Source: an uncultured bacterium (GTDB taxonomy: Bacteria; Fidelibacterota; Marinisomatia; Marinisomatales; UBA1611). Taken from it: a stretch of DNA of 64,000 nt. The translations under genes and the position numbers were made by a program. The notes under the pieces are model-generated. The model worked only from the letters and a program-made list of their open reading frames with translations. It ran no database searches and had not been told where the DNA came from. Positions 10,001 through 60,016 of this stretch are shown here, piece after piece (within the stretch, counting starts at the first letter, position 1; each line of letters opens with the position of its first letter). The DNA is taken from the NCBI GenBank assembly GCA_943788175.1, contig CALSPG010000001.1, forward strand, positions 256,001 through 320,000. Reading direction: 5' to 3'.

Positions 10001-12039
10001 CTTCAAAATCTCCTGGTTTTTCCATAGTTAAAGAGGTGGTTACTTCCAATAAAAGATATGATTTAAAGAACAGAGCCATATTGCCAAGTTCAATTACTAA
10101 TAATAGATTAAGTTTCATTGTAAATGCTGCAAATTATAATACTCACAAGGACAAACAAAAGTTTAGATATAGAATAAAAGAAGTTTCCGAAAGTTGGAGC
10201 GAACCATCAAATAAATCTATTTTTGAATGGGTTCCGAAAAATGCCGGTTTATACACATTTGAAGTCCAATCAATTGATCGAGACTTAAATTATTCAAAAC
10301 CCGCTAGTATTTCATTTAATATTGATTATCCTTGGTATCGGGAGCCAAAAACTGCTTTCCCATTTTGGGGAATTATTATATTCATATTGTCTTTATCTGG
10401 TGTATCTACAAAAAATTATATAAAACAAAGAAGAGTAGCTTCAGTACTGAGGAGGGAGGCAGCAGAAAAAGATAGAATTGCTAGAGAACGATTAGAAGAA
10501 AAAAATACTGAGTTACAAGATTCTCAAAAAGAAGCAGAGGCAGCAAATGAGGCAAAGAGCACTTTTTTAGCAAACATGAGTCATGAATTAAGAACACCGT
10601 TAAATGCTATTATAGGTTATAGTGAAATGCTTATGGAAGATGCAGAAGATGAGAATGAGGATTTCATTCCAGATCTTGATAAGATAAATGGTTCTGGCAA
10701 ACATCTACTTGGATTAATTAATGATATCTTGGATTTATCTAAGGTTGAGTCTGGTAAAATGGAATTATATATTGAAGAATTCGATTTAAAGAAAATTGTT
10801 AGTGAGGTAGAGGCAACAATTAAGCCTCTCATTGACAAAAATAACAATAAACTTGTGATAAAGTACAATGCAGTTGAAGATAAAATGTCTGCTGACTTAA
10901 CTAAAATTAGACAAATACTACTTAATCTTTTGAGCAATTCAGCAAAATTTACAAAAGAAGGTACGGTTACAATATCTGTTGATAAATCTAAATCGATTAA
11001 AAATGCTATCGATTTTAATATATCAGATACTGGCATAGGGATGACTCCTGACCAGGTTGATAAGGTATTTAAACCATTTACTCAAGCAGATGAAAAAACT
11101 ACAAGAAAGTTTGGTGGAACAGGACTAGGGTTAACAATAACAAAAATGTTTGCAGAAATGATGGGAGGCGATATAAACCTCAAGTCCAAAGAAGGTGAAG
11201 GGACAACTTTCACTGCAACCATTCCACTAAAAGTTAAAGATTTAAAGGTATCGCAACCTGTTAATAATGGTGGAATAATTAAAGAAGATGATTCTGATTA
11301 TAAAGTTTTAGTCATTGATGATGATGATAATGCACAAGATATGATGAAGAAATTTTTAGAGAAGCAGAATGTTAGTATAATACAAGCTAAATCTGGTGAA
11401 GAAGGCTTAAAACTCGCAGCTGAACATTTACCTGATGCTATTACTTTGGATGTGATGATGCCTGAAATGGATGGTTGGGAAGTGCTCACAGCCTTACAAG
11501 CAAACGATGTTACTAAGAATATTCCAGTCATTATGCTTACTATGGCTGATGAACCTGATATTGGTTATTCATTAGGCGCAACTGACTATTTAACTAAACC
11601 TGTTAATTGGAATCAGTTATCAAATATTCTAAGTAATCACAAGATTGAATCGGCCTCGCAGACGATACTTATAGTTGAAGATGATGATACTACAAGGGAA
11701 ATGTTAAAAAAGAGCCTTACGGGCCATGATTTCAAGGTTAGAATAGCAACCAATGGTAAAGAGGGGCTTGAAAAAGTAAAAGATTCAAAACCTGGCTTAG
11801 TTCTTCTTGATTTAATGATGCCAGAAATGGATGGGTTTGAGTTTGCTGAGAAACTAAGAGAAAATAAAGATTGGTTGGATATTCCAGTTGTGGTTATAAC
11901 CGCAAAAGACCTTACTAGTGCAGATCACAAAAGACTAAAAGGGAATGTTGAAGCGATAATGCAAAAAGGTTCTTACAGCAAAAAAGAACTAATGTCTGAA
12001 GTTGGAAATAGAATTAAACTGTTAAAAAAACGGAGTTAG
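7093..12039 (+). CDS. Hybrid sensor histidine kinase (beta-propeller sensor, Y_Y_Y, TM, HisKA, HATPase, 2x REC)
   Basis: Many DGL...D..G.IW.GT propeller repeats; [37 protein letters not shown]; two LD.MMP receiver domains. Confidence 0.93.
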
Positions 12040-12043
12040 GCTT

Positions 12044-12403
12044 ATGTCAAAAATATTAATTGTTGAAGATAACGAGATGAATAGAGATATGCTATCTAGG
12101 CGTTTAGAGAGGAAAGGTTTTGAGGTAGTAATGGCAGAAGATGGTAAAAAAGGTGTAGATATGTCAAAAAGTGAAACCCCTGATCTGATATTAATGGATT
12201 TGAGTTTGCCAATAATGGATGGATGGGAAGCAACTTCAACAATTAAGTCAGAAGAAAGTACTAGAGACATCCCAATAATAGTCCTTACTGCTCATGCTAT
12301 GTCCGGTGATAGAGAAAAAGCGCTCGAAGCTGGGGCTGATGAGTACGATACTAAACCTATTGATTTCAAAAGGCTTTTAGGGAAAATTAAAGATTTTATT
12401 TAA
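12044..12403 (+). CDS. Single-domain response regulator (DivK-like)
   Basis: ILIVEDN, LILMDLSLP, LTAHAM, TKP. Confidence 0.92.
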   Translation: MSKILIVEDNEMNRDMLSRRLERKGFEVVMAEDGKKGVDMSKSETPDLILMDLSLPIMDGWEATSTIKSEESTRDIPIIVLTAHAMSGDREKALEAGADEYDTKPIDFKRLLGKIKDFI

Positions 12404-12434
12404 AAATATCATTTTTTAGAGTCCCTCTTTTATA

Positions 12435-14013
12435 ATGGATAAAAGAACACAAAATGCTTTTCTTGGGAAGGCAAGGCATAATCTCAAGAACCCCGTCAAT
12501 GCTATTCTTGGTTATAGTGAAATGTTAATTGAAGATTGTGAAGATGAAGGTTTTATTAGCTTGATACCAGATATAAAGAAGCTAAATCAGGCTGGTAATG
12601 ATATATTATCATCCATTGAAGAAATATTCAGTGATAAGGCACTGGCCGATTCAGAAAATTCAATATCTGGAATGGCTAAAGAAATGGAAATAGCACTCCG
12701 AACTCCTCTAAATACAATAATTGGATATTCTGAGCTTTTAATTGAAGAATCAGACAGTGTTACAATTGATAATTTTAAAACTGATATTGATAAAATAACA
12801 CAGTCAGGTAGGTTGTTAGAGGAGGAATTGAGAAGTATAATAAGTTTTGATTCTAAAAATATTAAAAAAATAGGAGATCAAAATTTAAACCACGGAAACC
12901 TTTCCATGGTGCAAGATGTTCTTGATAGTATAATTCCATTAGATCAAAAAGATAAAAAACCTAAAGATGACGGGGACTATTTTGGCCGTTGATGACAATA
13001 AAAACAATACTGATCTTCTTGATAAAAGATTAACGAAAAAAGGTCATGAGGTTTTTACAGCAAACAATGGTAAAGATGCTCTCCTGCGTTTGAGCATTGA
13101 TAGAAATCAAATAGATGTGATTTTATTAGATATTGTTATGCCTGAAATGAATGGTTTTGAGGTTCTAAAATATTTGAAAAATGACAAACGCTATTTTGAA
13201 ATACCTGTAATTATGATATCGTCAATGGATGACACGGATAGTATATATAGATGTATTGAAAATGGCGCTGATGACTACATTACAAAGCCATTTGACAAGT
13301 CAATACTTGATGCCAGAATTTCATCGTGTATTGAAAAGAAACACCTTAGAGATAAAGAAAAGGTTTTGATGAAAAAACTAGCTGAGGAACAAGAAAAGTC
13401 AGAAAACTTATTACTTAATATTCTTCCAGAAGATATAGCATATAGATTGAAATCTGGAGAAACAAATATAGCTACCAAGCATAAAGGTGTTTCAATTTTG
13501 TTTGCAGATATTGTTGATTTTACACCTCAGTCTAAAAATTTACAACCCAATGAACTAGTAGTTATATTAAATAAAATCTTTTCTTGTTTCGATGACTTAT
13601 CCTCAAAATTTAAAATAGAAAAAATTAAAACTATTGGAGATAGTTATTTTGCTGTCGGAGGACTAAACAGTGAATCACTAAAATCATCAAAAAATTTAAT
13701 TGAAATGGCAAAAGAAATGATAACAGAAATCGATGTTCTTAACAATGAAACAGAAAAAATGGACATCCAATTAAGAATAGGGATACATTGTGGTGATGTA
13801 GTAACGGGAGTAATTGGGAAGCATAAATTTGCTTATGATCTCTGGGGTTCTGCAGTAAATATGGCAAGCAGGATGGAATCAACTAGTCTCCCAGGTAAGA
13901 TCCAAGTAAGTGAAGAAGTAAAATTACTAGTTGCAGACAGTTTTAAATTTCAAAAAAGAGAAAAAATAAAAATAAAAGGACTAGGGTATATAAGTACTTA
14001 CTTTATTAAGTAA
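12435..14013 (+). CDS. HisKA-like x2 / REC / class III adenylate-guanylate cyclase; appears as ORFs 12435..12992 and 12967..14013, probably one gene with a frameshift
   Basis: RHNLKNPVNAILGYSEML and ALRTPLNTIIGYSELL helices; REC (ILLDIVMP); cyclase motifs LFADIVDFT, KIKTIGDSY, YDLWGSAVNMASRMES. The ORFs overlap near A-runs at ~12955-12966. Confidence 0.8.
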
Positions 14014-54282: not shown

Positions 54283-56451
54283 CTATTTTAGCAATATCAT
54301 CTTTCTAGTTTCTCTAAAATCTCCTGCCTGAATCGTATAGATATACATTCCAGCAGCAACAGACTGACCTAAATTGTTGGTTGCATTCCATGTAACATGG
54401 TGATATCCAGCGCGTTGAATTTTTGATGACACTAGTGTACTTACTTTACGACCCATTACATCATAAATTGCTAAATAAACCATACCATCTGTAGGAAGCT
54501 CATATGATATAGACGTATTTGGATTAAAAGGATTAGGATACGCTGGATAAAGCGCAAATTTTCCAGGCAGGGTTTCTAAATTTGGGGTGGTTGACACTGT
54601 TGACACACGTGTCATCTTCCTCTCCATAGTCATATAAAAGCTATTGACGTTTTCCAATCCAGAAAGCATAGGTAATGGCATTGAGTCCGCCACCATTCGT
54701 ACGCAATCATCCATGCTACCATAATAGGCTGAATAATCTTCACATGGATATTCTTTAATACCAAGGATTAATGTATCAGCACTTTGTTGATAAAAATAAG
54801 AATCCCAATCACCTTCCTGGTAGTTGTAATCCTCAAAGTCAATTATATATAAAGAATCTGCGCTGGCATACCAATAAAAGTCTAAGGTATCAATCATTTC
54901 TTGGCCATCAATGTCCTCAAATGTGTTTATTTCATTTCCTGTCGAATCTTCAAAGAAATTCATATATGTAGGTTCTTCATTTTCCATTATATCTTCTAAA
55001 AACATTGAAGGAAGTTTTGTTTCAACACCAGCTAAGAGTTCAACCATTTTAGGGCCAATAGAACCATCTAAAGTAGCAACTACAGACCCGTTTGAATTAT
55101 AAAGGTTAAGGTAGTTAAATGTAACCATGTAATTATTTGTATCTACGCTTACATAATTAGAAAAATTATCCGCGTTCGATGAGAATATATCGGGTTCTTC
55201 ACCGAAAGGCGTAAGACCTTGCGCAAGCACTATTCCTTGATCTACGAAGACGGAAACCATGAAAGGATTATCTACTCCATCAATAGGAAATCCAAATATA
55301 AAAGCAAAAATATCATTAAAGTCAAAATTCATAATGATAAAATCAGGATCATCTGAGTCATCATTACCACTACCAGAACCACCAGCTAAATATTTTGCAG
55401 CGCATTGCCCATCACCATCTTCGCAATCCCAACAGACGCAAGTTTCATCGCCATTTTCAAATCCTATGTTACCATCATTATTAACATAAATTTGGTTCCA
55501 TCCTTCGCCATAAAAAACAAATTCTGATGACAATGCCTGGTATGAATAATCATCATCTTCTACTTCAATCTCATTTGAATACTCTCCTTCAAGATTGGAA
55601 ACAGTATCAGCACTAACAGAGTATTCAGAAAAATCATCATTTGGTATAAATGTTATCTTTTTATAGGCCATATCTAACTCATTTATTCCAGAAAAACCCT
55701 CAATTGGGACTAAAAAAGACTCGCCAGAAGATTCACTGAGATCTACGTTGGTAAATTCCCCATTACCATCTCCAATTCCTATGGCCAAACCGCCAGCAGC
55801 ATCAGCAACATTTGCGCCAGTTAAAAAGAGATCTTGGTAAGTAATTACTATCTTATTCGTACCATAAAAAAGCTGAATTTGAAATGTGTTTAATGCATCT
55901 GAATTATCATATAAAGGAACATCAATGAACGTAATATTTGCAGTTGTATCAGTTTCATCAAAATATATACTGCCACTAGTAGGATCTAAATCAGTTAAAT
56001 AGGCGCCAATTCGAGGTCCATAAGTATAGTCATCTTCATCGATATCGCGATTTTCTTCATCTCCTTCATCCCCTAGATTCATAAGGTCTCCATAAACTAA
56101 ATAAAATAGTTCAGTATCGTATTCACTATTAATAACACTAATACCTCCATTGGCAGTATCCATTCCCATTAAAGAAAGCATATTTGGAATATTTTGATTT
56201 GTTCCTACCGTTACAAATGTGCCAACTTCGGCAGGATCCATTTTCCATTGGCCAACTAAATTGTCCATATCCATAATAAAATTAGAACGCTCGCTTGAAT
56301 TAGATTGCGATCTAAATCTTTTTAAATCCTCAGGTGCATAAATGTTGTATTTATGTTGAAGCTTCTTTAGGTAATTATTTGTTTTATTCTGGAAGCCTTC
56401 GGCAGCAAAACATAATGAAAGAGAAAAAATAAATAAAATTGTTCTTTTCAT
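54283..56451 (-). CDS. Acidic secreted protein with nidogen-like insert and C-terminal sorting domain
   Basis: Probable start MKRTILF at 56451 with AAGGAG RBS; AYPNPFNP tail. Confidence 0.8.
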   Translation of the reverse strand: MKRTILFIFSLSLCFAAEGFQNKTNNYLKKLQHKYNIYAPEDLKRFRSQSNSSERSNFIMDMDNLVGQWKMDPAEVGTFVTVGTNQNIPNMLSLMGMDTANGGISVINSEYDTELFYLVYGDLMNLGDEGDEENRDIDEDDYTYGPRIGAYLTDLDPTSGSIYFDETDTTANITFIDVPLYDNSDALNTFQIQLFYGTNKIVITYQDLFLTGANVADAAGGLAIGIGDGNGEFTNVDLSESSGESFLVPIEGFSGINELDMAYKKITFIPNDDFSEYSVSADTVSNLEGEYSNEIEVEDDDYSYQALSSEFVFYGEGWNQIYVNNDGNIGFENGDETCVCWDCEDGDGQCAAKYLAGGSGSGNDDSDDPDFIIMNFDFNDIFAFIFGFPIDGVDNPFMVSVFVDQGIVLAQGLTPFGEEPDIFSSNADNFSNYVSVDTNNYMVTFNYLNLYNSNGSVVATLDGSIGPKMVELLAGVETKLPSMFLEDIMENEEPTYMNFFEDSTGNEINTFEDIDGQEMIDTLDFYWYASADSLYIIDFEDYNYQEGDWDSYFYQQSADTLILGIKEYPCEDYSAYYGSMDDCVRMVADSMPLPMLSGLENVNSFYMTMERKMTRVSTVSTTPNLETLPGKFALYPAYPNPFNPNTSISYELPTDGMVYLAIYDVMGRKVSTLVSSKIQRAGYHHVTWNATNNLGQSVAAGMYIYTIQAGDFRETRKMILLK

Positions 56452-56655
56452 AATTAAGACTCCTTGTAGTTTTTTAACTAATTGATAAGACATTTAAAAT
56501 TAGGGATATAGTATAGATTTATTATAATAATTATTGAGTTTATTTTTCGACATATAGAGCTAAAAGAATTACTAATAAACTTTATCAAACGGCTGAGAAA
56601 AGCTAGTGTGGTGCTCATAAAATAAAGTAGAGAACTATAAAAACCAGTATATATA

Positions 56656-56771
56656 AAACTATGAAATTTAGGTATAAAGCAAAAAACCCCACTAAAAGTG
56701 AGGTTTCTCGTCGCGTACCCGGGGCCGGACTCGAACCGGCACGGTATTGCTACCAACGGATTTTAAGTCCG
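56656..56771 (-). repeat. att-like direct repeat: 3' part of tRNA-Leu plus terminator
   Basis: Near-identical to 58053..58168 (offset 1397 bp); identity stops at the 5' side of the anticodon stem. Confidence 0.93.
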
Positions 56772-56908
56772 CTTACGAGATTGTCGTGAAAGGCACTTTT
56801 TGTACAACACTGTACAACAAATTACGAGGTTAGTTCTCTCATCACCACCTGGCATGAGAAGTGCCATATGAAATTTTCTTAAGCGCAAAATGATTTTTAT
56901 AAATGATA

Positions 56909-57867
56909 TTACCATGATATAACAACTAGTCCGTTGCCTTCTCTACCTGTCATAGTGTACCTCCATCTGGGTCTGGCATAGTATGCGTTTCCTGCTATAC
57001 TCTGATCCGCATTAGATACTCCTCCAACATAACCTGAACCGCCGCCGCCACCGCCACCATCAGCATCCACCAGCCGCCACCACCATAATAGCCACCTCCT
57101 CCTGCGCCACCATCCAGCAGATTACCTCTAGTAGCTGTTTGATTTCCTCCTAGTGCCAAGTGAACCTGCCTTCTTGAATCACAACCGTCACTGTTGCATA
57201 CCAACTGCGCACCACCTGCTGATTGCGTCCCACCACCGCCACCAGTTCCCGATACCATTGCTCCTCCTAGGGTCACCATTACCGCCAGTTAATGCTTCCA
57301 CCTCCATAGCCTCCATGCAATGCATAAGAAATGTATCCAAGCACTTCCACCGCCTCCACCGGAGCTACAATGACTACGATTTGTGAAAGCATTACCTCCA
57401 ACTGGAACGAACATCAGCTTGCGCCTCCACCGGACTTCCAGCATATGCACTCAGTTTTAGTATGATCCTCCACCATTGAATCCTCCGTTAACCATAGTAC
57501 AAGACCATCCAGATGATTTCCTACATCTGATCCGGATGAATCGCCTTGTCCTCCTACATAGACATAGAGAAGGGTTTCTCCTTGATGTTACGTTTAAAGT
57601 CTCCAGTTGCGTATGCCTCCTTTGCCTGCACCCCAACTACGAATAACTAGTTACATTACCTCCTCTGCCCACCCCATAGCCTTAATTGTAATTGTGCTTA
57701 CACCAGACGGTACGGTAAAAGTTTGTTGTGAGCCAGTGTAGCTAAAAGTCTGGGAACCTGATGAGCTAACTGATGTGTGTGGCTTATGTGCGCCATGAAA
57801 TGATGGCAATGCTATTTGAGCATTTATAAAATTTAATAATAGCAATTAGATAAATATAAATTTTCAC
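56909..57867 (-). pseudogene. Secreted glycine-rich protein, many frameshifts
   Basis: Fragments: signal peptide + NAQIALPSFHGAHKPH, QTFSYTGSQQTFTVPSGVSTITIKA, GGGGGYYGGG, ending GNGLVVISW*. Confidence 0.7.
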
Positions 57868-58076
57868 ATATGAAATTATAAAAGAATAGTTTCGTAATAC
57901 GATATTAGTTTCAATTTTTGAGCAACGTGCAACAAACAACCAAGTACATGATTCACTTACTAGCATTATTTCAAATAACTAAAGTGTTGTACAAAAAAAT
58001 ACATGTACAACATTGTACAACACTTATATTCCATAATATGCCATAATATGCCAAACTATGAAATTTAGCTATATAG

Positions 58077-58104
58077 CAAAAAACCCCACTAAAAGTGAGG
58101 TTTC
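58077..58104 (-). terminator. Terminator of the tRNA operon (duplicated at ~56680-56707)
   Basis: Minus strand AAACCTCAC-tttta-GTGGGGTTTTTTG. Confidence 0.75.
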
Positions 58105-58112
58105 TCGTCGTG

Positions 58113-58196
58113 TACCCGGGGCCGGACTCGAACCGGCACGGTATTGCTACCAACGGATTTTAAGTCCGTAGTGTCTACCAATTCCACCACCCAGGC
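58113..58196 (-). tRNA. tRNA-Leu (anticodon TAA)
   Basis: GCCTGGG/CCCGGGT acceptor stem, ACGGA-CTTAAAA-TCCGT anticodon arm, long variable arm, GGTTCGAGTCC T-loop. Confidence 0.96.
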
Positions 58197-58219
58197 AATA
58201 AAATTTCAAAAACATAATG

Positions 58220-58293
58220 AGGCGTCGGCCGGATTCGAACCGGCGAATAACGGTTTTGCAAACCGGTCCCTTAAACCACTTGGGTACGACGCC
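58220..58293 (-). tRNA. tRNA-Cys (anticodon GCA)
   Basis: GGCGTCG/CGACGCC acceptor stem, CGGT-TTGCAAA-ACCG anticodon arm, GGTTCGAATCC, U discriminator. Confidence 0.93.
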
Positions 58294-58380
58294 ATTGATA
58301 TAATAAAACTTACATAGTTTTTTTAAGACAACAATCTAACTTTTTATAAAATTATGCTCTCATACGCAATAAATTAACAT

Positions 58381-58611
58381 ATGGATTATAAAAGAATAAC
58401 CATGTATAACAGACTAAGAGATTATTTTATACCAGCAGCTGTACTAGATGAAATATTCCAAAGTCATAAAGATATTACAACGCTTGAAAACGCATACGAT
58501 TCTTTGATTCAAGATGGATTCAGTGAAGATGGTGCTGCAGAGAAAATTGCTAAATTAGTATTTGAAGAGACTGGTATTGAGCCAGATTACGGCATAGATG
58601 AGGAAGAATAA
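58381..58611 (+). CDS. Small acidic hypothetical protein
   Basis: 76-aa ORF with globular composition. Confidence 0.6.
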   Translation: MDYKRITMYNRLRDYFIPAAVLDEIFQSHKDITTLENAYDSLIQDGFSEDGAAEKIAKLVFEETGIEPDYGIDEEE

Positions 58612-58943
58612 AAATAATTAAACTGATAATTTTTACTTATCGGTTGTTCTATTTGGTATTCTGTGCCTTTATTCACATTTAATACTAAACTATCTAGAAG
58701 TGGATAGTTTTTCTCTACTAATGTTTCAGTATTTATTTTTCCAAGACTATCCAAAACCATATTACAAACTCTAACTGCCCTATTTCTAGTGTATCCCTCT
58801 TTAGTATCTTGCCATATTATTGGATTAATATCCATCTTGCTTTTAAGCAGTAGCATTTGGTGGTAGACAATAGAGTCAATAGCTATTGGTTCTGCCGAGT
58901 TGGAAAGAGAAAAACCAAGCAAAAGGCATAAGAAACTTCTCAT
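58587..58943 (-). CDS. Hypothetical exported protein (start MRSFL at 58943)
   Basis: ATGA overlap with the upstream stop; signal-like N-terminus. Confidence 0.55.
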   Translation of the reverse strand: MRSFLCLLLGFSLSNSAEPIAIDSIVYHQMLLLKSKMDINPIIWQDTKEGYTRNRAVRVCNMVLDSLGKINTETLVEKNYPLLDSLVLNVNKGTEYQIEQPISKNYQFNYFYSSSSMP

Positions 58944-59278
58944 TTTACTACAGTAACTAAACCTACGAAAAAATAAAATATTATTGCTGTGACGCACATA
59001 CCGTAAGTTGAAGTCCAACTTGACATAAACTTTGACTGCTCGAAATCTCTATTGTATTCATTAATTTGAATCTGGTCAATTAGTGTCTCACCGCCTTTTT
59101 CTCTACATAATTTTGAAGCTTTAAAATATCGAGGAAGATCCTTTACAGGTAGGGCTTTAACTCCAAACTTTCTTGCAAAAGTAACAGTTCGGTCGGAGCA
59201 AGGATTATTTACATTAAGATTATCTTGAGAATAAATTATAGAGAAACAAATAATAAAGCTGCGTACTATATATTTCAT
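58940..59278 (-). CDS. Hypothetical protein with signal peptide and C-terminal TM
   Basis: Translationally coupled to both neighbours. Confidence 0.6.
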   Translation of the reverse strand: MKYIVRSFIICFSIIYSQDNLNVNNPCSDRTVTFARKFGVKALPVKDLPRYFKASKLCREKGGETLIDQIQINEYNRDFEQSKFMSSWTSTYGMCVTAIIFYFFVGLVTVVK

Positions 59279-60016
59279 TTTAATGCATAAACAACTTTAA
59301 AAGTAAAAATAGGAATTTCATCAATTTTCATCTCCGGTCCTTTTACAGTTTTCCCCTGAAAACGCCACTTGTTCTTTTTATAGTTATTATTCAAAAAACC
59401 CATTTTAATATCAATTCCAATCCACGGCCTTATGTAGTATCGATATCCGAGCATCCCCGAAAAGCCTAGCCAATCTGTTACCATCGTATTTTCAGAAGCA
59501 ACCTGACTCAATGGGCTCTCATCTCCAAAACTATTTAATAATTCATTCCAATCATCTGTGATTGTGTTAACGCCGCTACCATCTGAACTCGAAGGCTTTG
59601 TTTCAAGAATGAGTCTAGACCGACCCCATATTGGAGTCAATGTAAAATTCAATTCAACTTTTGGTTTAAGTCTGAAGAAAGTTTCCAGCGGAATCATTCT
59701 ATAATTTATGGTACGATAGAAAACAGGCTTACTAGTTGCAAACCCTTCTAATCTTCCAATATCAATTGATTTAAGAACATTATAACCAACCCTAGCATTA
59801 TGAAAGAATTCATAATAAACACTAAAATTAATTAGCAAATTCCTTGTGAGTATATTTCCAGTAGGAAAAGATACTAACTCATTACTGTCAAAACCTTCCA
59901 TGGTAGGTTCATAGAAGCCTGTACCAAAATCAATACTAATTTTTGGCTGACTATATAGTGATACCACTAAAAAGTAGCAATGGAATACTTTTAAACTGTA
60001 AAATTTGACTCTTCAT
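59275..60016 (-). CDS. Probable outer-membrane beta-barrel; signal peptide separated by a 1-nt frameshift
   Basis: Beta-strand pattern (GMLGYRYY, FTFKVVYALK); upstream ATG at 60016 is in a different frame. Confidence 0.55.

Follow-up and report, generated by a model that had tools for sequence, protein, structure and literature searches.

In phage lambda, a heterobivalent tyrosine integrase acts on an attP that carries the arm-type sites P1, P2 and P'1-P'3. In mycobacteriophage L5 and the phages of cluster K, several short arm-type repeats flank a core that overlaps a tRNA gene. Genomic islands in tRNA genes with an anticodon-centred attP were reportedly described by Williams in 2002. Such islands form a common class, with 2,083 of them listed in PMC4383910. 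The CIMEs of streptococci have lost the integration genes and kept attL and attR, and they can undergo tandem accretion with incoming elements (PMC5704250).

Here, we analyzed a tRNA-Leu(UAA) locus in a 64,000-nt stretch of DNA from an uncultured bacterium, referred to as the window (genome G000, a 92%-complete assembly). Our main reading, to which we assign a probability of about 85%, is that the short repeats at this locus (boxes) are arm sites of a lambda-type integrase (Int) of uncultured marine tailed temperate phages that target the anticodon stem-loop of tRNA-Leu(UAA), and that the window holds an integrase-less prophage leftover. Arm-type sites at a tRNA-borne prophage leftover are textbook biology, and the finding itself is therefore ordinary.

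The element is bordered by a 128-nt direct repeat (56644-56771 and 58041-58168) with 94% identity between the copies, and the cassette measures approximately 1.4 kb from repeat to repeat. Each copy contains the part of tRNA-Leu(UAA) that begins at the 5' side of the anticodon stem and runs to the 3' end, followed by a trailer of about 70 nt with a terminator hairpin, oriented on the minus strand. The left copy consists of the displaced 3' part of the tRNA (56715-56771) and the native trailer with its hairpin (56644-56714). The right copy comprises a trailer supplied by the element and the 3' part that completes a working tRNA, a stretch also found in the phage attP described below. The intact tRNA-Leu(UAA) spans 58112-58196 and is accompanied by tRNA-Cys (58219-58293), both on the minus strand; its anticodon stem-loop (58153-58169) is the presumed core and crossover region. 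The junction between repeat and element lies at 56771|56772. At the other end, identity between the repeat copies stops at 58168, and the boundary 58168|58169, on the 5' side of the anticodon stem, is the same in the phage attP. The ends are recognizable, as in the Islander islands, by a tRNA that was regenerated on one side and a 3' fragment displaced on the other, and identity between the copies likewise begins at the anticodon stem. In contrast to these islands, the repeat does not stop with the tRNA but extends about 70 nt further into the trailer.

The 1,269 nt between the repeats had a G+C content of 44.5% versus ~33% in the surroundings. Next to the left end, the minus strand carries a remnant of the final gene of a phage tail module, a 255-aa ORF of which the 3'-terminal 12 codons (...FSCQVVMRELTS*) and the stop are left (56822-56860). 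This remnant was matched to the ORF at 1191-1958 of phage contig L044, and the DNA identity with L044 reaches 56860. It is followed by a cargo gene (56909-57866, minus strand) for a glycine-rich protein with a signal peptide, of the PF12810 (ALK_LTK_GRD) type, which is broken into pieces in three frames with in-frame stops. On the plus strand, codons 349-372 and the stop of an integrase gene (int) remain at 57908-57982. The encoded stump is 87.5% identical to Int residues 349-372 and was the sole match in the genome when the phage integrase was used in tblastn; the five PF00589 matches of the genome are all located on other contigs. T9SS sorting domains were noted in genes flanking the cassette.

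No complete integrase gene was found between the repeats, so that the element lacks the integrase of its own that characterizes an autonomous element, and tblastn detected no other copy of this integrase in the assembly. Islander demands an integrase gene within the island, whereas here there is none, and unlike lambda the element keeps neither int nor xis. Classification as a phage satellite of the P4 or PICI kind was rejected, since these require their own integrase and helper-hijack genes and the cassette holds one cargo gene and two gene stumps. Like a CIME, the element has lost its integration genes and keeps both att ends, and two metagenome contigs contain tandem arrays. CIMEs originate from ICEs or IMEs and are transferred by conjugation, whereas this element stems from a tailed phage and its mobilization is only hypothetical. 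Save for its phage origin, the element thus agrees with the definition of a CIME. The missing int and the broken cargo gene would also suit a different view, in which the boxes are former integrase arm sites and the cassette is now an inert, vertically inherited scar whose perfect boxes reflect young age or chance survival. We regard such a scar as possible but doubtful, and return to it below.

The box TGTACAACA was present on the plus strand as a tandem pair in the short arm (56801-56809 and 56811-56819) and as a second pair in the long arm (58004-58012 and 58014-58022). An inverted copy on the minus strand (57985-57993) starts three bases past the integrase stop. In addition, the 15-nt TTTTTGTACAACACT (56797-56811) recurs without mismatch in reverse-complement orientation at 57983-57997, and CCATAATATG is repeated in tandem at 58031-58050 on the plus strand. 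The initial annotation had reported all of these positions correctly. It had also seen no box on the chromosomal side of the displaced tRNA fragment, and our window scan for TGTACAACA agreed, as the chromosomal side was box-free at both repeat copies. The boxes lie inside both ends of the element, next to a core that falls on the tRNA anticodon stem-loop, which supports its reading of them as arm-type sites. The arrangement resembles that of lambda, with boxes of 9-10 bp and a 10-bp spacing on both arms, of which one is long and one is short, and in mixed orientation. However, the core is here a tRNA anticodon stem-loop, whereas the attB of lambda is intergenic.

Within the window TGTACAACA was counted six times compared with a mean of 0.48 after shuffling, and 0 of 100 shuffles reached six. 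The whole genome contained 15 copies in 2,265,538 bases, where ~29 were expected from the base composition. Five copies fall within ~1.2 kb versus 10 single copies across the remaining 2.26 Mb; given that the latter are all singletons, the Poisson probability of five copies in ~1.25 kb is below 1e-10. Exact tandem pairs were found genome-wide only at the two ends of the element. A chance origin of the boxes was rejected on the basis of the window shuffles and the genome-wide counts. The sixth copy in the window (30673, minus strand) is unrelated, and one further place, on C6, matches the tandem pair with 2 mismatches.

The long-arm boxes are located ~120-170 nt upstream of the start of the cargo gene and the short-arm boxes past its end, a position that would be compatible with regulatory sites of the glycine-rich gene. 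We consider this explanation, or that of a chance repeat without a role in recombination, highly improbable. Chance is excluded by the counts, and the same five-box layout recurs in phage attPs that have no glycine-rich gene nearby. Rfam matches between 56400 and 58400 were confined to tRNA, by which a reading as another known RNA was rejected as well.

Scans with the junction and the box pair, which had been proposed as a searchable signature, indeed led to uncultured phage contigs with an unsplit attP beside a gene for a 372-aa integrase. One of these, L044, is a marine contig of 19,968 nt, and the viral contigs L061 and L069 are identical to it in layout. In L044 int is followed, 3 nt past its stop, by the inverted TGTACAACA, and then by a tandem pair, a CCAT...ATATGCC stretch and the trailer; the attP continues with the 3' part of tRNA-Leu, the core, the 29-nt spacer, a second tandem pair and the stop of the 255-aa ORF. 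The inverted box has the same position in L044, L061 and L069 as in the window. A third viral contig, L065, has the same short arm. The tRNA part of the phage attP is letter-identical to that of the host. The viral contigs encode a tape-measure protein, a single-stranded DNA-binding protein (SSB), a DNA methyltransferase, an exonuclease and a primase/helicase, and the 255-aa ORF follows the tape-measure gene as the last gene. No glycine-rich gene was found on three viral records, which are 44-65% complete.

Compared with the phage attP, one arm in the window showed 94.0% identity (250 nt) and the other 96.1% (205 nt), with all five boxes letter-perfect. This argues against a scar. The suggestion of the initial annotation that the cassette is still recombinable does not hold for the cassette by itself, which has no integrase of its own. 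As no other copy of the integrase was detected in the 92%-complete assembly, any remaining ability to recombine would have to depend on an integrase supplied in trans. Moreover, with neither int nor a directionality factor in the cassette, it would be movable only by a co-resident phage with TGTACAACA boxes (type A below). That a co-infecting phage of this type could excise or recombine the cassette in trans has, in our estimate, about even odds.

Between the core and the first box lies a spacer of 29 nt (56772-56800), which reads cttacgagattgtcgtgaaaggcac followed by tttt. It is identical in the related genome G001 and nearly invariant in 21 sequences (16 distinct), its first 8 nt being fixed by the search pattern in the metagenome junction scan. 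On the long arm, the CCATAATATG doublet belongs to a conserved piece of phage sequence between the boxes and the tRNA trailer. It is kept in phage attPs of several box types, even where Int is only 50% identical, and is a candidate site for an accessory protein.

Relatives of the integrase were absent from 50,697 deposited phage records according to tblastn. A second viral scan yielded 42 loci, of which 32 were processed and 10 dropped owing to matches that were truncated or began beyond residue 1; one further locus was too short downstream, leaving 31. Within ~400 nt after int, an 8-mer was repeated at least four times in 7 of the 31 loci and three times in one. The remaining 23 had two or fewer copies, indicating that attP is not directly downstream of int there.

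The 372-aa Int matched phrog_1 'integrase' with an E value of 1e-14. Its score against Pfam PF00589 was 21.9 bits and hence under the curated cut-off of 27.1, and in NCBIfam only XerS was matched (18.6 bits, cut-off 267). Residues R222, H310, R313 and Y346 were invariant in eight Int sequences, so that the R...HxxR...Y signature is present beside the attP. The residue aligned with what we take to be the second catalytic His of lambda Int (GHKSD) is Asp in this integrase (GDKSD). An AlphaFold model (pLDDT 79.6, 8-row alignment) predicted strands at residues 3-7, 13-19 and 26-31 and a helix at 34-52 (pLDDT 81-88), ahead of the core-binding and catalytic domains. The best Foldseek matches of the model were to full-length lambda Int (1z1b, 1z1g and 5j0n; E about 1e-8), with alignments beginning at model residue 1-2; Brujita Int, XerA and Tn1549 Int were matched too. 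Assessed within the full-length predicted structure, Int is thus predicted to have a separate N-terminal domain of the arm-binding type composed of three strands and a helix. Lambda Int carries such a beta-sheet/helix domain as well and is the best match of the predicted fold, whereas the sequence identity to it is only 14-18% and the Pfam score is under the cut-off.

The phages differ in the word used for the box. Three types have their own word at all five positions, namely TGTACAACA (type A), TGTACCTAA (type B) and TGTAACTAA (type C). In Int residues 1-36, type A differs from B and C at 14-17 of 36 positions (39-47%), and B from C at 12 of 36. In residues 37-372, in contrast, the three types differ at only 8-9 of 336 positions (97-98% identity). 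Further types with TGTAACACT, TGTAACAAT and TGTCACAAT showed the same layout and the same relation of box and N-terminal domain. Positions 13, 15, 27-29 and 32 separate the integrase found with TGTACCTAA from both integrases found with TGTAACTAA. Judged from about seven related types, Int residues 1-36 change jointly with the box word, and Int probably binds the boxes. Lambda is unlike this system, in which the box word varies from phage to phage while the rest of Int is 97-98% identical. Such a series of box words matched by N-domain changes among closely related phages also distinguishes it from L5 and cluster K.

A second protein had to be considered here. Upstream of int, and adjoining it, the phages encode a protein of ~260 aa with an apparently excisionase-like helix-turn-helix (HTH, motif GISRQTxDRW), which differs among types A, B and C (42%, 70% and 37% identity). 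The boxes could then be operators or directionality-factor sites bound by this protein and not by Int. However, box type does not track the HTH protein. L071 and L055 share 86% identity in it and have different boxes, whereas a common box is found in L096 and L055 with 32% identity only, and in L071 and L054 with 45%. In all three comparisons the N-terminal domain of Int follows the box. Furthermore, boxes on both arms between two convergent gene ends are not in an operator position. We therefore judge binding by the HTH protein to be improbable and continue to favor Int.

Metagenomes were scanned with a 22-nt junction between tRNA and element. The scan gave 20 loci, some of which represent one sequence recovered from separate samples. 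A tandem pair of 9-mers was present 29-30 nt past the junction, with the offset and spacing seen in the window, in 19 of the 20 loci; the 20th was cut off. The pair was TGTACTAAA/TAGTACTAA in five loci, TGTAACTAA twice in three, TGTAACAAT/TATAACAAA in three and TGTATGACA/TCTATGACA in two. Doubled TGTACAACA, TGTAACACA and TGTACCTAA were found in one locus each, and three mixed pairs accounted for one locus each (three loci in total). When the 21 short arms, including those of G000 and G001, were aligned (16 distinct sequences), the boxes formed variable columns inside nearly invariant flanks. None of the 20 loci contained a full-length prophage integrated at this tRNA, and integration by these phages is consequently deduced from the att identity.

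Two genomes of the same genus were informative. G002 has the tRNA and the same trailer without interruption and thus represents the empty site. In G001 the same tRNA harbors a homologous insertion. Its cargo gene is intact and encodes 288 aa, and the product matched PF12810 (E 5e-25), phrog_5811 (E 1e-28) and several PHROGs of unknown function. The initial annotation had named absence of the motif from homologous insertions as evidence against its reading. Taken literally this is the case, as TGTACAACA is absent in G001; yet boxes of other words occupy the same five positions, by which the arm-type reading is strengthened. These are TGTAACTAA twice in the short arm, and TGTACTAA (inverted), TGTACTAAA and TAGTACTAA in the long arm. 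In terms of box words, G001 is a hybrid of two types.

The arms of G000 and G001 are 82% identical over 357 nt and the flanking DNA is 87.6% and 89.7% identical. With the divergence of the arms close to that of the flanks and the cassette at the same place, old vertical descent fits as well, a point in favor of a scar. Among 54 genomes of the family the exact box pair was found in G000 only, and among 233 genomes of the order the 25-nt junction was restricted to G000 and G001. In an all-species contig collection the single matching contig agreed with the G001 match in contig number and position. No genome of the host genus has a full prophage or an Int of the same family. Relatives are carried by G013, a member of the same family, and by G215. 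The relative in G013 has a different target, lying beside the 5' part of a tRNA(CAT) with AGTAACA boxes.

Variation within the population points in another direction than a scar. Over 2,014 nt of host flank, the metagenome contigs L040 and L042 share 99.7% and 99.8% identity with the window, yet their cassettes are only 87.6% and 81.7% identical to that of the window, with many indels and other boxes. Boxes of the TGTACTAA type occupy both arms in L042. In L040 they are confined to the short arm, and the long arm, where the contig ends, retains the inverted TGTACAACA; the replaced patch of ~45 nt holds just the short-arm boxes. Near-identical flanks with differing cassettes and boxes indicate that the locus was exchanged recently. 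The exchange may have occurred by site-specific recombination or by homologous recombination via the conserved flanks, as the population data are compatible with both. Moreover, two metagenome contigs contain two junctions 3,048 nt apart and thus stacked elements in tandem arrays, which likewise counts against a scar.

The int stump (residues 349-372; 344-372 in L041) occurs together with the glycine-rich gene in G000, L040, L041, L047 and L057. In L042 and L046 the stump was not reported by tblastn at E 1e-4; the alignment nonetheless shows it in L042. The cargo gene is open in seven of eight cassettes (G001, L040, L041, L042, L046, L047 and L057) and broken only in G000.

Logan contigs of four marine runs, which break at repeats, were compared with positions 55500-59300. 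Over the cassette flanks they showed 0-2 differences per 1.0-1.2 kb, and 56900-57650 was almost uncovered. Since the cassette interior is unsupported by independent assemblies, the frameshifts within it may be artefacts of assembling a polymorphic locus. A contig joining 56771 to 58169 was absent in the four runs, where contigs break at repeats and cannot show absence; the lack of an excised or empty form among these contigs is accordingly a weak argument for a scar. In run X5 one contig had a joint 57892>58026 with a side of 30, a signal too weak for interpretation. A 115-nt unitig of run X2 equals the short arm of the window, and a 109-nt unitig of X5 reads TGTAACTAA boxes. Both lie wholly within attP-like sequence, so that free phage is a possible source.

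Under our main reading of the boxes as arm sites, Int of the live phage would grip the boxes with its N-terminal beta-sheet/helix domain and work on the anticodon stem-loop with its core-binding and catalytic domains. By analogy with lambda, Int protomers would bridge the arm boxes (N-terminal domain) and the arms of the anticodon stem (core-binding domain). Crossover probably takes place within the anticodon loop, and strand exchange in these 7 nt would create the junction 56771|56772. The element would bring the 3' part that repairs the tRNA gene. A lambda-like mechanism of this kind would account for the abrupt end of identity, for the location of the boxes and for the regeneration of the tRNA.

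We tentatively propose, as a possibility we would not yet rely on, that the cassette (1.2-1.4 kb) is a maintained integrase-less passenger of the phage family. It would keep the arms and the glycine-rich gene and be excised, exchanged or stacked in trans, with the rapid joint divergence of boxes and N-terminal domains, over an unchanging core and catalytic part, giving rise to recombination-incompatibility groups. In the accessible parts of the open-access literature we found described neither a temperate phage of this host group nor a natural series of arm-box and N-domain variants.

The exact match of attP and attB ties an uncultured marine tailed phage family to an uncultured host genus. 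At least six box words go together with N-domain variants of an integrase that is otherwise 94-98% identical, which points to residues that may read the arm DNA. The locus is an exchange hot spot within one population, and the MAG consensus may be chimeric here. If the passenger proposal is true, related phages and cassettes could use one tRNA-Leu site without excising one another, and the natural series would be a set of ready-made orthogonal pairs of arms and N-terminal domains. If, in addition, the host belongs to SAR406, this uncultured group would gain its first temperate phage system with resolved attP and attB.

Beyond the boxes of the cassette, the candidate arm-type sites of about 9 bp, the host genome contained only one further tandem box-like pair, TATACAACAATGTACAAAA with 2 mismatches (G000:C6:74625-74643). 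A different repeat family (D2) was found in the window at 11434-13166, where a 53-nt stretch occurred four times with 60-72% similarity and at spacings of 360, 388 and 932 nt. These copies resemble a domain that is repeated within one gene or across two.

The attP and the cassette were present in several variants. In the viral contig L097 the long-arm box pair directly abutted the short-arm flank within the first 70 nt past the integrase gene. This attP lacked the tRNA part as well as the core and looks like a deletion between both box pairs. In two metagenome contigs (L049 and L039) a large gene, instead of the glycine-rich gene, followed the short arm with the 12-codon stump of the 255-aa phage ORF. 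According to our reading of its C-terminus, the large gene would end with a T9SS-type sorting tail. Additionally, the site in L049 was unsplit from the long arm through the core to the short arm, and a third variant of the glycine-rich gene adjoined it.

Stacked elements at tRNA-Leu were found on two contigs, Ga0114997_10000412 (L046 and L047) and Ga0115000_10000284 (L058 and L052). Here, an open frame of 618 aa with a signal-peptide-like N-terminus was located between two cassettes. It was adjoined by a second, diverged tRNA-Leu 3' part, which was preceded by TGTCACACAGTGACACAG and had a different terminator. The open frame and the diverged 3' part may represent a third kind of island with the same target.

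In the viral contigs L062, L064 and L068 four TGTACAACA boxes arranged as two tandem pairs were present at locus position ~1950-2060, immediately after a tRNA-Phe(GAA)-like 5' part ending past the anticodon stem. The contigs belong to an unrelated phage group, and tblastn revealed no similarity to the 372-aa integrase. This group may have arrived at the same box word independently.

Residues 335-339 of the 372-aa integrase (L044:2199-3314:-, beside the unsplit attP of a phage contig) read GDKSD, which we take to align with the GHKSD of lambda Int, whose His is catalytic. Judging from this motif, the integrase family seems to carry an Asp at that position. At L123 in G013, a genome of the host's family, a protein related to this integrase (E 5e-96) is encoded beside the 5' part of a tRNA(CAT). 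Boxes of the AGTAACATAT type were located on both sides. Together with the tRNA(CAT) 5' part, these boxes argue that, in related hosts, other tRNAs serve as targets of the integrase family.
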